Of a stretch of DNA of 45,847 bases, positions 25,023 through 41,876 are shown in pieces. Position numbers and translations under genes: made by a program. How positions within the stretch are numbered: the stretch's first letter is position 1; every line of letters starts with the position of its first letter. The DNA comes from a virus. The stretch lies in UHGV virus genome UHGV-0097969, one strand, 5' to 3'. Under the pieces are notes generated by a model. The model was given only the letters and a program-made list of their open reading frames with translations. It searched no databases and was not told the DNA's origin.

Positions 25023-25138
25023 CGGGTTATCTCCGGTTTAACCAGGGCGGGTATCGCTCGGTTTCGGGTATAACCTTAGGAAATTTTTTCCCACCTGTAA
25101 AGCACTTTTTATATAAATCTATAATTATATAATTCTAT
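25023..25138 (-). promoter_or_regulatory. conserved promoter/leader cassette, copy a
   Basis: About 108 bp near-identical to 31667-31768 and 41761-41876; TTTACA-N17-TAAGGT promoter-like, conserved leader with SD, AT-rich octamers upstream. Confidence 0.5.
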
Positions 25139-25722
25139 GACAGTTGCCAGAGAGCATCATGCAACTGGATACCTCCGTTGCACTGGTTGCCCCAGCCATG
25201 CCAGCCATCAGGTAAATCACCGCGAGCAAACAGCTCAATACGAGGAACATCACCTAACAGTCTTACCAGCTTGTCACGAACCACATCAGGCTTCCGTGAA
25301 TGTTCCAGACGAGGCGATGTAAACGACTGAATGATCCCCGCATCAAGGCGGGTCGGCAGTTTGCCTTTTACCGCAAACAAGCAATCTTCACTGTTCGCAC
25401 GAGTCATATGCCCCATCCCCATCACCAGCTTATCTGGTTGTCGGCTACCACATTTGTTCCATGTAAAGCCCTTCATGGTCATAAGCCTGAATCCCCATGC
25501 TTTCACCACCAGCAACGCTTCTTCTGGCTGAGTCGGAACCCACCACATGGCCAACAAACACGATTCAGGATTAGCAAGCTGCCAGACAGGAATACGAGCA
25601 ATATCCTCAGCTTTCATCGTTGGATACTTAAAACCAGCGCCACGACTCCCATCCTTACACTTGTCTTTGTATTCCCAGGGGGGATCTGCATAAATCAGAT
25701 TAAACAATGCAATTGCCTCCAT
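25135..25722 (-). CDS. DNA N6-adenine methyltransferase, MT-A70 family
   Basis: N-terminal motif ...LIYADPPWEY... (DPPW). Confidence 0.75.
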   Translation of the reverse strand: MEAIALFNLIYADPPWEYKDKCKDGSRGAGFKYPTMKAEDIARIPVWQLANPESCLLAMWWVPTQPEEALLVVKAWGFRLMTMKGFTWNKCGSRQPDKLVMGMGHMTRANSEDCLFAVKGKLPTRLDAGIIQSFTSPRLEHSRKPDVVRDKLVRLLGDVPRIELFARGDLPDGWHGWGNQCNGGIQLHDALWQLS

Positions 25723-26028
25723 GTTAGTTGTGCCTCCGGCGCTTATCTCCGGCAGTCATAACGCTGGCCAGCTCTACAGCAGACACAACGAAAAGGGCAC
25801 TAACCAGACTGATTAATGCCCTTGCCTGTTGTGTGCCGGATATCGCCCGACAACGCTGTTTTGGTAACACGGCTACAGTTCCGTGCCGCTCCAGCTTTTA
25901 CCCCTTTGCGGATAACAGGCCCTGCCTGTACTTAGCCCCACGTTCACCCGAATGTGCACCAGGCACGCATAAAGATGAGCACGAAGGAAGTAACTCCACC
26001 GCGCTTATCTTTATGTGTAAGAGTGAAT

Positions 26029-26104
26029 TGGTGGCCCCTACCGGATTTGAACCGATGACCGTGCGATTATGAGTCGCCTGCTCTAACCACTGAGCTAAGG
26101 GGCC
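26029..26104 (-). tRNA. tRNA with CAU anticodon (Ile2 or Met), CCA encoded
   Basis: Reverse complement GGCCCCTTAGCTCAGTGGTTAGAGCAGGCGACTCATAATCGCACGGTCATCGGTTCAAATCCGGTAGGGGCCACCA folds as a cloverleaf (7-bp acceptor, GCTC/GAGC D stem, TTCAAAT T loop); first half resembles ileX-type as recalled. Confidence 0.85.
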
Positions 26105-26273
26105 ATATTTGATTTGTTTGTCTGGTGTGGCGCCGCGTACGAAAATCCCAGCCAATAAATTCAGGATTTTTGGACGCGGCGGCATATCAGACAAACATGG
26201 TTGATGCGTGCGCTCATGAGAAAAGCGCATAGAATGTTGTAACTATATATTTATATAATTATAGAAATATATA

Positions 26274-26483
26274 TTACTTTTGGCAGTTGATTTCCCATGC
26301 CCTGTTATGAGCCAGAATATCTTTCTTTGTCTGGCGGTCCATAACATCGATGTCGTGATCAGTAAGGTAGATTGGCTTTACCCAATCACAGGCGGTATCA
26401 ACCACCACCGGGACGCTTCCACGACTCCCGCAGCTCGCGATCAACATCGTCATCAGCCATATGGTTAACACTCTGCTGTACAT
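26274..26483 (-). CDS. o-spanin (Rz1-like lipoprotein), overlapped frame
   Basis: Lipobox-like LIASC after a hydrophobic N-terminus; overlaps the 3' end of the i-spanin-like ORF in another frame. Confidence 0.45.
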   Translation of the reverse strand: MYSRVLTIWLMTMLIASCGSRGSVPVVVDTACDWVKPIYLTDHDIDVMDRQTKKDILAHNRAWEINCQK

Positions 26484-31666: not shown

Positions 31667-31768
31667 TCTCCGGTTTAACCAGGGCGGGTATCGCTCGGTT
31701 TCGGGTATAACCTTAGGAAATTTTTTCCCACCTGTAAAGCACTTTTTATATAAATCTATAATTATATA
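31667..31768 (-). promoter_or_regulatory. conserved promoter/leader cassette, copy b (P_R'-like position after the Q-like gene)
   Basis: Near-identical to copies a and c; lies about 60 bp downstream of the Q-like stop. Confidence 0.5.
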
Positions 31769-31830
31769 TTTATAGATTTTCCGATATTCCCGATGCCTAC
31801 AAATCACCAAAACAGCTCAAAATGACACTT

Positions 31831-34354: not shown

Positions 34355-35011
34355 ATGAAAAGCAACGACGAGAACATCAAGAAAGAAATAGGTCTGCGCA
34401 TTCAGACTCTACGGAAACAATCCGGCATGACTGCCGGAGATCTCCAGCAAGTCACTGGAATAGGCTTAAGCACCTTGCAGAACTATGAGGCCGGATTAAG
34501 ACAACCATCTATACCTGCCATCAAGAAAATCGCGCACGCCCTGAAAGCATCAGCGCCTTATATCGCGTGCTTAACAGATAACCCGTTCCCACCCCAGAAT
34601 ACTAACGCTCCTGTTATTCCTGGGCTTGTAGCTATAAAAAATGACATAGCATCGCACGCCGGAGAAAAGCCAGTGCTGGCGATAGAACAGGAGATTCTAC
34701 GAAGCAAGAACATCAACCCATCGTCTCTGTCAGTTCTCCAGAGCAACGATGAGTTAATGTCACCAACAATATCCCCAGGCTCCCAAGTCCTGATTAATAC
34801 AGACGATACAGAGATTCATGAGGGGATCTATGCCCTTGAAGACAGAAATGGCCTGGTTGTTTTGAGGCACTGTAGAGTCATACCGGGTGACAATGCTGTT
34901 ATGCTGTCAACCGAAAGGGATGCTGAAATGAACACTAAGCATCTGAATAACGAGGAATTTAAGCGTTATAAAGTTCTGGGCCGCGTAGTTAGTGTTGTCA
35001 ACTGGTTATGA
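34355..35011 (+). CDS. CI-like repressor (HTH plus S24/LexA-like C-terminal domain)
   Basis: HTH ...QSGMTAGDLQQVTGIGLSTLQNYEAG...; C-terminal domain of LexA/CI type. Confidence 0.8.
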   Translation: MKSNDENIKKEIGLRIQTLRKQSGMTAGDLQQVTGIGLSTLQNYEAGLRQPSIPAIKKIAHALKASAPYIACLTDNPFPPQNTNAPVIPGLVAIKNDIASHAGEKPVLAIEQEILRSKNINPSSLSVLQSNDELMSPTISPGSQVLINTDDTEIHEGIYALEDRNGLVVLRHCRVIPGDNAVMLSTERDAEMNTKHLNNEEFKRYKVLGRVVSVVNWL

Positions 35012-35500: not shown

Positions 35501-35606
35501 TTATATGATTATAGATTTATATAATTATATAAAACACTTTTCATCAGCCAAAAAGTTGGTTATGCTTACCTCGTTCTATAAATATAGATTTATAGAATTA
35601 TATAAC
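35501..35606. repeat. AT-rich octamer arrays upstream of parA (candidate centromere/operator)
   Basis: ttatatga ttatagat ttatataa ttatataa at 35501-35532 and tatagatttatagaattatataa at 35580-35606; similar array at 36281-36314. Confidence 0.45.
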
Positions 35607-35613
35607 CAAACAC

Positions 35614-36282
35614 ATGGAGTCTCGACAAATGACTATCTCTGTAGGTATTTTCAACGGAAAAGGCGGCGTAACCAAATCAACAATTGCCCGTGCTTTAGCA
35701 GTTGCTTATGCAAAGGCCGGCTGGAATGTATGCCTGATCGATATGGATGTGCTTAACGGAACGGTAACGCGTTGGGTACAACGCAGAATGGCCAACAATA
35801 TCGAACCTGCAATCGCGGCGCAGCCGTGCGGCACACCATCACAAGTCCAGAAAATCATCGAATCAGAAGTATACGACCTGGTTATCGTCGATGGCGGTGC
35901 CTACGCATCTGAATCAGTACCGAAGCTCTCTGAATTTCTGGATATGGTTATTTTGCCAACCAGATTCTCTACCGATGACCTGGAAACCACCGTTAACACA
36001 GCTCATGGCATCGTTAAAAAGGGTGTGCCAATCAAGAAAATTTGCATGGTGTTCTCAGGCGCGGCTGAAAACGAAGCCGACTACATTGAAGCCCAAGAGT
36101 ACCTGGCTAATACGCCATACTTTGTTGTCGATAAGTACATTCCCCACAAGCCAGCTCTGAGCAAAGCTCAGGATAAGGGCTTAAGCCTCATTGAGTGCTC
36201 ATACGTTGCGCCACGCAAAAAGGCAGACGACGTTATTCAGGGGATTATCAACCAGCTTGAGGCTCTGACTACTGCCGCGTAA
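35614..36282 (+). CDS. parA: ParA/ParF-type partition ATPase (type Ib)
   Basis: Deviant Walker A GIFNGKGGVTKST; about 220 aa; probable true start ATG at 35629 with GGAG upstream. Confidence 0.85.
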   Translation: MESRQMTISVGIFNGKGGVTKSTIARALAVAYAKAGWNVCLIDMDVLNGTVTRWVQRRMANNIEPAIAAQPCGTPSQVQKIIESEVYDLVIVDGGAYASESVPKLSEFLDMVILPTRFSTDDLETTVNTAHGIVKKGVPIKKICMVFSGAAENEADYIEAQEYLANTPYFVVDKYIPHKPALSKAQDKGLSLIECSYVAPRKKADDVIQGIINQLEALTTAA

Positions 36283-36325
36283 TATATAATTATAGTTTTA
36301 TAGATTTATATAAGAGGGGATACAC

Positions 36326-36795: not shown

Positions 36796-36819
36796 TAAAA
36801 AAGGCCCCCGAAGGGGCCT
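36796..36819 (-). terminator. intrinsic terminator between convergent units
   Basis: AGGCCCC-cgaa-GGGGCCT stem with T-run on the minus strand. Confidence 0.5.
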
Positions 36820-36824
36820 AATCG

Positions 36825-36947
36825 CTACTTGCTGCTAATGTTTATCGTCACATTCAGAGCGTTATCAGTAATCTTCCAACCCTCCCCATGTGGCGTAAAC
36901 AAAGCTCCAGTAACAACGATAAAAATACACATGTAGTATTTTTTCAT
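36825..36947 (-). CDS. small hydrophobic peptide (40 aa), putative
   Basis: MKKYYMCIFIVVTGALFTPHG...; AAGGG SD; terminator directly after the stop. Confidence 0.3.
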   Translation of the reverse strand: MKKYYMCIFIVVTGALFTPHGEGWKITDNALNVTINISSK

Positions 36948-37261
36948 TGTGTGGCCCTTACAGGCCGTTTCACGGCATCCCCACCGACGAAAATGACGCG
37001 AGAGCAAGCACGCTGTTTGTGCCTGCGTGGTACGGCAAGTGGATAATCCTTTCCTGAAAGTCAGTGCCCGGGTGCGAATCGGCGGAAAGGCCCCAAGCCA
37101 TATTACACGTCATACCCTTCATAATGAAGGAATAAAAAACGCTTTTATTACATAAGATTACACGTAAATAAGTTAAAAACCTTCATTTTGCATGAGCTAA
37201 TGAGCTAAATTTTTTTATATGAATAGTGGACTATTCACCTCAGTTGGGTAAGAATGTAGTT

Positions 37262-38094: not shown

Positions 38095-38203
38095 TTGACA
38101 TGAATGCGCCATTGGTGGACACTTTCCGAGCCGTAGCAAAATCTACGGTCGGGATTGGAACCCCGTAGACACAATGGCGCATACCGCGTTAGCGGTTTTT
38201 TTA
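38095..38203 (+). promoter_or_regulatory. promoter plus structured leader with intrinsic terminator (attenuator or small RNA) ahead of the antirepressor operon
   Basis: TTGACA at 38095-38100; hairpin CCGTAG-caaaat-CTACGG; long-range GCGCCATTG...CAATGGCGC; terminator ACCGC-gtta-GCGGT plus T7 at 38183-38202. Confidence 0.35.
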
Positions 38204-38368
38204 TGCGTAAAGCACTGCTACACCCAAATTATGGTGGGGCGTGCGGGGGAGTCGTAAGACTCGCCGGTTCGTCATTGTGTCCGGTAGTTCCAACCCAGCA
38301 CGTCTCACCACCCAATGATTGGAACCTGACGGTGGTGAGTATCCTTAACCTTTAAGGGAATCATCACA

Positions 38369-41760: not shown

Positions 41761-41876
41761 CGGGTTATCTCCGGTTTAACCAGAGCGGGTATCGCTCGGT
41801 TTCGGGTATAACCTTAGGAAATTTTTTCCCACCTGTAAAGCACTTTTTATATAAATCTATAATTATATAATTCTAT
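41761..41876 (-). promoter_or_regulatory. conserved promoter/leader cassette, copy c
   Basis: Near-identical to copies a and b (one G/A difference in the leader). Confidence 0.5.

Follow-up and report, generated by a model that had tools for sequence, protein, structure and literature searches.

What is carried by the spacer of a phage genome in which a lone tRNA gene, placed between lysis genes and late genes, is followed by several hundred nucleotides of structured and GC-rich sequence? The question is raised by the UHGV virus genome UHGV-0097969, a stretch of 45,847 nucleotides (hereafter the window, numbered from its first letter), in which a preliminary description made from the letters alone had placed, at 25740-26104, a phage-borne tRNA(CAU) followed by about 250 nt of hairpin-bearing sequence that could be a co-transcribed small RNA or a degenerate second tRNA. 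In the explanation favored here, the minus-strand spacer that separates the lysis cassette from the MT-A70/ParB/terminase genes is probably a non-coding leader RNA into which a tRNA-Ile2 cassette has been inserted, and the ~300 nt after the tRNA form the 3' part of that leader, comprising a long hairpin, a core of ~95 nt, an intrinsic terminator, and a three-helix motif of the rydB class (Table 1). The tRNA is of a known kind, and the leader appears as an undescribed variant of the structured leaders that combine a terminator with a translational fold, unexpectedly tied to RydB and to the late leaders of lambdoid phages.

Extent, Strand, and Conservation of the Leader

The GC-rich and structured character first ascribed to the sequence downstream of the tRNA is borne out by its composition (52.6% G+C at 25740-26028 vs. 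44.5% for the window) and by its folding, because the minus-strand RNA of 26028-25780 reaches −97.7 kcal/mol (z = −4.5), which was equaled in 0 of 200 shuffles; the opposite strand also folds well, as hairpins would. The first delimitation captured the tRNA and its structured flank and was too narrow for the unit as a whole, which spans 25722 to about 26286 and extends 3' to the start codon of the MT-A70 methyltransferase gene and 5' to an AT-rich promoter-like motif. "Co-transcribed RNA" remains a fair description of a sequence that is conserved, structured, located on the same strand as the tRNA, and furnished with a recognizable terminator.

The strand of the RNA was judged from an alignment, A1, of 13 sequences from four lineages, which was folded with RNAalifold. 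Standard pairs occupy 98.4% of the alignment cells when the sense strand is read, compared with 86% when the same cells are read as antisense, and the cells hold 105 G-U pairs vs. 5 A-C pairs. Likewise, 11 variable pairs toggle between Watson-Crick and G-U pairing, and only one or two become A-C. This pairing pattern suggests an RNA on the gene-sense strand; outside the terminator, the signal is suggestive, not conclusive, because the structure and the test share one alignment of four lineages. No lineage of the core beyond these four was returned when viral and metagenome contigs were scanned for the pattern.

Across the lineages, the core is 89–94% identical and the last 64 nt of the leader are 95–98% identical, compared with ~70% for the MT-A70 coding sequence and ~26% for the interior of the terminator hairpin. 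The leader is thus a non-coding RNA conserved far above the neighboring gene and absent from Rfam; when Rfam was searched permissively over 25650-26300 (E up to 10) and also over the longer Salmonella versions, the only matches apart from the one tRNA of the window were a sub-threshold rydB and chance hits of microRNA type on the palindromes. The put RNA of phage HK022 was considered as a relative and rejected, since the immunity and put region of HK022 showed no similarity.

At the 5' end, the AT-rich motif is presumed to be the start of the transcription unit: a promoter scan finds CTGCCA-17-TATAAT matching at 10 of 12 positions, and the motif is kept in the Salmonella and L048 lineages along with a downstream GTTACAACATTC. 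At least 6 intergenic sites of the window carry the motif, where none is expected; the ~28-bp quasi-palindrome (ATATATTTCTATAATTATATAAATATAT and variants) was located at 25111-25138, 26245-26272, 31748-31775, 35503-35611, 36282-36311, and 41849-41876, with a flank, CTGTAAAGCACTTTTT, common to three copies. By analogy, these copies look like a dispersed set of operators or promoters comparable to the scattered C1 operators of P1.

The Terminator and the rydB-Class Motif

Six pairs of the terminator stem are altered on both sides between lineages, which is compensatory change, and the stem is extended by a clamp in which ACACAAC (25834-25828) pairs with GUUGUGU (25789-25783). The terminator with its U-run sits 70 nt before MT-A70. 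A terminator-like hairpin on the same strand had been proposed near 25780-25815 as the end of the element; the hairpin was recovered slightly away from that position, with its stem at 25823-25793, and it is not the end, since a rydB-class motif follows it and overlaps the MT-A70 ribosome-binding site. No conserved antiterminator helix emerged from inspection of A1, in which the candidate AAAGGG/CCCUUU does not covary and breaks in the Salmonella lineage.

The rydB-class motif is matched by Rfam rydB (RF00118) at 25780-25725 with 27.3 bits, and its Salmonella relatives score 25.7–29.1 bits; the true E. coli rydB, located between ydiH and sufA, scores 81.6 bits. The structural features of rydB are nevertheless present in the window, namely the P3 hairpin CCGGAGAUAAGCGCCGG, the AGAGCU box, and the closing helix P1. 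In particular, the 20-nt hairpin UGCCGGAGAUAAGCGCCGGA and the box are identical in the window and in true E. coli rydB, and the short P2 and closing P1 stand in equivalent places. In contrast to RydB, the P1 of the window is of different sequence, with 9 bp, and a 9-nt linker joins P2 to P3; furthermore, the motif in the window is embedded in a 5' untranslated region and overlaps a Shine-Dalgarno sequence, whereas RydB is an independent transcript. The GUUGUGU segment has two mutually exclusive partners, either the upstream ACACAAC of the terminator clamp, which RNAalifold prefers, or the downstream strand of P1. A custom model (R1), trained on the window instance, matches the window once.

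Separately, 15 nt at 34427-34441, in the 5' part of a plus-strand repressor-like gene, are identical (not complementary) to the rydB-like motif in its ATGACTGCCGGAGAT region and lie in a small hairpin; this match (BLAST E = 0.011) is possibly due to chance.

The rydB-Class Motif in Other Viral Contigs

An exact copy of the 19-mer TGCCGGAGATAAGCGCCGG is present in 65 IMG/VR contigs, of which 53 do not belong to the family of the window. Its flanks follow a common plan, in which a lineage-variable P1 is followed by the AGAGCU box, a short P2, and an invariant P3. Thirty distinct pairs of complementary sequences form P1 across the instances, and in a covariance model with 64 instances aligned, all five modeled P1 pairs change on both sides, with the caveat that registers vary between subtypes and that slid controls were not clean. 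The canonical phage copies reach 77–81 bits with Rfam rydB, and no named phage with a canonical rydB was found in INPHARED beyond this family.

These copies lie mostly in the interval from the antiterminator Q to the holin. A holin of P21 type or a lysozyme lies 160–1433 nt downstream on the same strand in 42 of the 53 contigs, and a Q antiterminator (PF06530 or PF03589) lies upstream in 17. At L182 4591-4770 and L183 11203-11396, between Q and the holin, STnc100 (RF02076) ends in a terminator directly upstream of rydB, so that the order there is Q, STnc100, terminator, rydB, often another terminator, and then the holin; STnc100 and rydB look like successive late-leader RNAs. Because the canonical copies follow a unit of STnc100 plus terminator, the order of terminator, rydB, and first late gene is common to them and to the window, in which promoter, tRNA and leader, terminator, rydB-like motif, and MT-A70 form a parallel series. 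Of 54 contigs scanned, 9 have tRNA genes, none of them farther than about 400 nt from the motif and all on its strand; five contigs place tRNA-Gly and tRNA-Asn 60 nt ahead of rydB, again on the same strand. As a separate observation, L172 (3971-4141) and L202, which belong to an unrelated phage, carry a DNA methyltransferase, a non-canonical rydB-class motif, a tRNA-Asn 34 nt on, and then a holin and a lysozyme, and the trio of methyltransferase, rydB-like motif, and tRNA is common to these contigs and the window.

Short terminated RNAs made from phage late promoters, such as StxS and lambda 6S RNA, are known to act as small RNAs, and StxS has a tRNA promoter just downstream (PMC7547250); RydB appears as an RpoS regulator in the list of one E. 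coli study (PMC11228462). At the level of sequence, the leader of the window likewise resembles lambda 6S RNA and StxS, which end at tR', as a structured non-coding leader with an intrinsic terminator before late-type genes and tRNA genes in the spacer. However, the lysis genes of the window are located upstream, not downstream, and neither STnc100 nor HK022 put resembles the leader in sequence. By this analogy, the contexts of rydB suggest a late-operon leader of the lambda 6S RNA or StxS kind.

A broader proposal is offered tentatively and with somewhat more doubt than belief: the rydB-class fold might be a widespread and previously undescribed element of phage late-operon leaders (between Q and holin in lambdoid prophages, often beside tRNA cassettes, and in the MT-A70 leader here), which here would work in cis by concealing the Shine-Dalgarno sequence in a switch coupled to a clamped terminator; E. 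coli RydB could then derive from this phage element, either as a relic on the chromosome or as a domesticated copy. Through the link to RydB, a poorly understood small RNA gains a phage context, among late-gene leaders beside Q, holins, and tRNAs, together with a testable role in cis, and the link accords with the view, prompted by StxS, that regulatory RNAs can arise from antiterminated phage leaders.

Modular Build of the Spacer

Three Salmonella plasmids (L003-L005) and the IMG/VR contig L048 have the same gene order as the window and encode an MT-A70 protein ~76% identical to its own. The Salmonella plasmids have no tRNA and keep the AT-rich motif, the large inverted repeat, the stem of hairpin 1, and the entire 3' leader. 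The hairpin-1 stem of the Salmonella and L048 lineages is rebuilt from compensating arm sequences and encloses an element of ~95 nt (element Y; L003 2335-2440, L048 2090-2185), in place of which the window has a small hairpin. The Salmonella versions also carry an element of ~135 nt (element X), and L048 combines element X, the tRNA, and element Y. Given the Salmonella versions without a tRNA and the L048 version with all three parts, the spacer has a modular build, in which the tRNA is one optional cassette; judged from these sequences, the structured RNA is independent of the tRNA.

Element X is located at L048 1843-1978, L003 2115-2250, L159 3001-3134, and L160 2501-2630 and is absent from the window; neither X nor Y has an Rfam match. 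Versions of element X that are 86–87% identical occur in Citrobacter phage phiNP and in several Klebsiella phages, always within long untranslated leaders. The unannotated leaders of phiNP and of Klebsiella phage ST147-VIM1phi7.2 share a module with the window, which consists of a CCGG hairpin, ACACAAC, a long hairpin, and UUUCGUUGUG (nhmmer E = 1e-6 for ST147-VIM1phi7.2 and 0.035 for phiNP), so that the arrangement of ACACAAC, hairpin, and GUUGUG recurs there. Unlike the leader of the window, these leaders hold element X and follow a repressor-like gene, heading an operon of early type. Lambdoid and phiV10-like prophages with a 77%-identical MT-A70 were rejected as relatives of the leader, since their upstream regions are unrelated and the gene lies in an early recET/perC operon.

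The tRNA Gene and AUA Decoding

The proposed phage-borne tRNA(CAU) stands: on the whole 45.8-kb window, ARAGORN reports one tRNA only, on the minus strand at 26029-26104 with anticodon CAU, and the Rfam tRNA model (RF00005) scores 67 bits over its full length, which passes the family gathering score of 29. The label "Met" given by ARAGORN reflects the anticodon only. The isotype assigned by PGAP is tRNA-Ile in every record of the ~70 E. coli plasmids that carry the gene, and the CAU sits in the body of a tRNA-Ile2, not in that of an initiator or elongator tRNA-Met, as judged by PGAP isotype and by identity to ileX. The likeness of its first half to enterobacterial tRNA-Ile2, which had been remarked on, proves to be exact, as the first 42 nt are all identical to chromosomal E. 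coli ileX (which adjoins mug), with 68 of 76 positions identical overall; 72 of 76 are identical to the tRNA-Ile of ~92-kb P1-like plasmids. The G-A pair noticed at the base of the anticodon stem is also real and is flagged as non-canonical at 27:43 in the Rfam alignment. Since P1-like plasmid tRNA-Ile carries G-A there, E. coli G-U, and L048 A-C, the weak pair is a family trait, not a sign of decay.

The E. coli genes ileX and ileY and the phage-borne copies (P1-like plasmid tRNA-Ile and Stx-phage ileZ) have in common with the tRNA of the window the CAU anticodon, an identical loop CUCAUAA, the acceptor stem GGCCCCU/AGGGGCC, A73, and the encoded CCA, and carriage on AUA-rich mobile elements is also alike. 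Compared with ileX, the differences are G27-A43 in place of G27-U43, and changes in the variable loop and T-arm. Compared with the P1-like plasmid tRNA-Ile, G27-A43 is common and the genomic slot, after the lysis genes, is different; kinship of the leader to the flank of that plasmid gene was rejected, as the downstream flanks are unrelated. The identity elements read by isoleucyl-tRNA synthetase and TilS are reportedly C4-G69, C5-G68, U12-A23, C29-G41, A37/A38, and A73, and all of them are present in the Rfam-aligned tRNA. The gene is therefore predicted to encode a functional AUA decoder carried as a moron, with lysidine at C34 and charging with isoleucine.

Codon usage, a comparison that had been suggested for the late genes, agrees with such a decoder. 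In a crude set of open reading frames (ORFs) from the window, AUA accounts for 16.1 per 1000 codons and for 25.7% of isoleucine codons; in the plasmid of E. coli ATCC 25922, described below, the value is 15.4 per 1000, and its tail genes reach 24.7 per 1000. In E. coli, AUA amounts to roughly 4–5 per 1000 codons; relative to this figure, AUA is 3–5 times commoner in the genes of the element, especially in the tail genes. The tRNA probably aids late translation and is dispensable. By itself it is ordinary, being another phage copy of an AUA decoder on an AUA-rich element.

Proposed Working of the Leader

In the favored explanation, transcription would start at the AT-rich promoter-like motif or enter from the lysis genes. 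The tRNA would be freed by RNase P and RNase E, and host TilS would turn its C34 to lysidine and so confer AUA reading. Much of the transcription would then halt at the terminator, and the short structured product, a counterpart of lambda 6S RNA or StxS, may itself be stable. In read-through transcripts, P1 and P3 of the rydB-class motif would bury the MT-A70 Shine-Dalgarno sequence, so that termination and translation would both be gated, for MT-A70 and probably for the genes beyond, and the pairing of GUUGUGU, either upstream in the terminator clamp or downstream in P1, would be the switch.

Several findings weigh against this explanation. The U-tract of the terminator is broken (UUUUCG), and termination is possibly weak; a strict promoter scan yields one match, fewer than the mean of 2.7 in shuffles. 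Among ten early ORFs, neither Pfam nor PHROG revealed a Q-type or any other antiterminator, and no Q gene or qut-type site was found. The rydB-like copy of the window is below the Rfam gathering score of 50, and it has neither its own promoter (none between the terminator and the motif) nor its own terminator (none before the MT-A70 ATG). The leader is represented by four lineages only, and covariation outside the terminator consists of one-sided G-U changes. In pESBL3215 (L157), a natural deletion of ~100 nt (~25950-25850), between the direct repeats TTCGGG and GTCGGG, takes most of the core, which argues that the core is not needed for carriage or maintenance of the plasmid. Finally, a Salmonella relative whose plasmid lacks tRNA genes altogether uses AUA at 12.0 per 1000 codons, and because this relative is also AUA-rich, the tRNA is at most helpful and not essential.

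Alternative Explanations

An alternative reading, in which the downstream sequence supplies one or more stand-alone trans-acting small RNAs, is unlikely and deserves to be weighed first. Such RNAs would be cut from the tRNA precursor, as in the 3'ETS-leuZ sponge, or would act on host mRNAs such as rpoS in the manner of RydB or StxS, with any control of MT-A70 being incidental. A sequence-specific function in trans would fit the near-invariance of the 3' 64 nt, the canonical phage copies of rydB are short units with their own terminator after them, and there are precedents in StxS and in the five contigs with tRNA-Gly and tRNA-Asn upstream of rydB. However, the motif of the window comes after the terminator, not before one, and leads directly into the Shine-Dalgarno sequence and ATG of MT-A70; moreover, a search for antisense targets found no significant complementarity of the leader to the rest of the window.

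The core and terminator might instead form a ligand-sensing riboswitch or a protein-dependent attenuator through which a signal such as S-adenosylmethionine or S-adenosylhomocysteine would tune MT-A70; this is improbable. The layout is typical of such devices, with a domain of ~95 nt, a terminator, a helix that occludes the Shine-Dalgarno sequence, and a methyltransferase downstream, and GUUGUGU has alternative pairings. In contrast, neither riboswitch classes nor GOLLD/ROOL RNAs gave an Rfam match in this region of the window (E up to 10) or in the longer Salmonella versions (E up to 1), the antiterminator helix is wanting, as noted above, and the core is naturally deletable.

Action of the hairpins in DNA, whether as an origin of replication, as a site of packaging, or as targets bound by a phage regulator or a ParB-like protein, is very improbable. 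Some features of the spacer favor it: the AT-rich palindrome is repeated over the genome, and the inverted repeat directly upstream of the tRNA (26115-26197), which forms one long hairpin in all four lineages with differing arm sequences, is more stable when folded as antisense (−61 vs. −48 kcal/mol), so that its action may be at the level of DNA or of an antisense RNA. In addition, in E. fergusonii plasmid pRHB41-C23_4 (L155), the interior of hairpin 1 (at 26007-25976) is the exact reverse complement of the window sequence and is flanked by 8-bp perfect inverted repeats, which is a single inversion event at the DNA level in 1 of 35 loci carrying hairpin 1. However, downstream of the tRNA, G-U pairs are kept on the sense strand only, in the ratio to A-C pairs given above, which is not expected of DNA palindromes. 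An origin of plasmid replication at the leader was ruled out, as repA lies elsewhere, ~18 kb away, and the terminase gene is about 7 kb distant.

A coding role of the region is unlikely on the sequence evidence, and the specific proposals, a 114-aa plus-strand ORF (25728-26072) and a 48-aa minus-strand ORF (25870-25724), are highly improbable. The plus-strand frame is largely open in all lineages and is annotated by PGAP as a hypothetical protein in two records. Neither of these ORFs, nor a 110-aa minus-strand ORF, has a Pfam match; the 48-aa ORF is interrupted by stops in the Salmonella lineage; and the 114-aa ORF enters the tRNA, with ends that are not conserved. In the 114-aa frame, four of six substitutions between the window and the Salmonella core are non-synonymous, and all six keep RNA pairs.

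The suggestion that the downstream sequence is a decayed second tRNA, after the ileZ-argN-argO clusters of Stx phages, has next to no chance of being correct, since phage tRNAs are indeed often clustered but ARAGORN and the permissive Rfam scan each find one tRNA only and the conservation is too high for a decaying gene.

Coordinates of the Features

Table 1. Features of the leader and adjoining genes, in window positions.
Feature	Position	Strand	Basis or detail
AT-rich 28-bp quasi-palindrome and sigma-70-like promoter match	26245..26286	−	Palindrome 26245-26272; CTGCCA-17-TATAAT at 26286-26258
Imperfect ~40-bp inverted repeat, directly upstream of the tRNA	26115..26197	.	Folding
tRNA-Ile2-type gene, anticodon CAU, encoded CCA, G27-A43 mismatch	26029..26104	−	ARAGORN; Rfam
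Hairpin 1, 22 bp	25968..26015	−	Fold; stem arms compensatory between lineages
Conserved leader core, ~95 nt, three short helices	25836..25929	−	Cross-lineage identity; substitutions that keep G-U pairs
Intrinsic terminator	25783..25834	−	14-pair stem 25823-25793, then UUUUCGUUGUGU; terminator scan
rydB-class motif, 63 nt	25727..25789	−	Rfam sub-threshold; shared hairpin; covarying P1
P1 (9 bp) of the motif	25789-25781 with 25735-25727	−	GUUGUGUCU with AGGCACAAC
AGAGCU box of the motif	25775-25770	−	
P2 of the motif	25772-25763	−	GCU-GGCC-AGC
P3 of the motif	25754-25736	−	UGCCGGAGAUAAGCGCCGG
Shine-Dalgarno sequence GGAGG of MT-A70	25733..25737	−	Direct sequence reading; wholly within P3 3' arm and P1 3' strand
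MT-A70 family methyltransferase, first gene after the leader	25135..25722	−	Pfam PF05063, E = 3e-23; PGAP annotation; start codon ATG at 25722

The Host Replicon and Other Observations

The window belongs to a ~48-kb myovirus phage-plasmid of RepA type that is found in Escherichia and Salmonella. The 700 bases around the tRNA are matched with 97–98% identity by ~70 circular E. coli plasmids of 47–49 kb and with ~98% identity by the Yersinia phages vB_YpM_39, 41, and 44 (GenBank OR545053-OR545055), in whose records the tRNA is labeled tRNA-Met and every protein is labeled hypothetical. Nothing was found in the literature on the ~48-kb plasmids of this family or on the "Yersinia phage vB_YpM" records, and pSLy3 was ruled out as a member, being a 114-kb plasmid of SSU5 type. 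Among the E. coli plasmids is that of the reference strain ATCC 25922 (48,488 bp; NZ_CP009073); as such phage-plasmids occur in many clinical E. coli including this strain, transcription mapping and mutagenesis of the leader can be conveniently carried out.

The annotation of the ATCC 25922 plasmid includes RepA, ParA, a RelE/ParE toxin pair, and an XRE repressor divergent from the early operon. Later in the order, holins and a GH108 lysozyme are followed by the tRNA, the MT-A70 methyltransferase, ParB-like proteins, terminase, head genes, and a P2-like contractile tail. The early operon through the tail runs in a single direction, which corresponds to the minus strand of the window, and the tRNA and leader occupy the spacer between the lysis genes and the MT-A70 methyltransferase.

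Within this one-directional early-to-late array, three more strong hairpins resembling intrinsic terminators are located on the gene-sense (minus) strand, at 27927-27900, 24534-24511, and 23660-23639; together with the terminator at 25823-25793, they suggest either read-through control or many separate promoters. Elsewhere in the window, Rfam matches above threshold were obtained for isrK (38130-38202, plus strand, 67.7 bits) and C4 antisense RNA (38227-38315, plus strand, 74.1 bits), a pair that points to an immunity region of P1 or Gifsy type, and for ryfA (36797-37095, minus strand, 134.6 bits), which may be a type I toxin locus.

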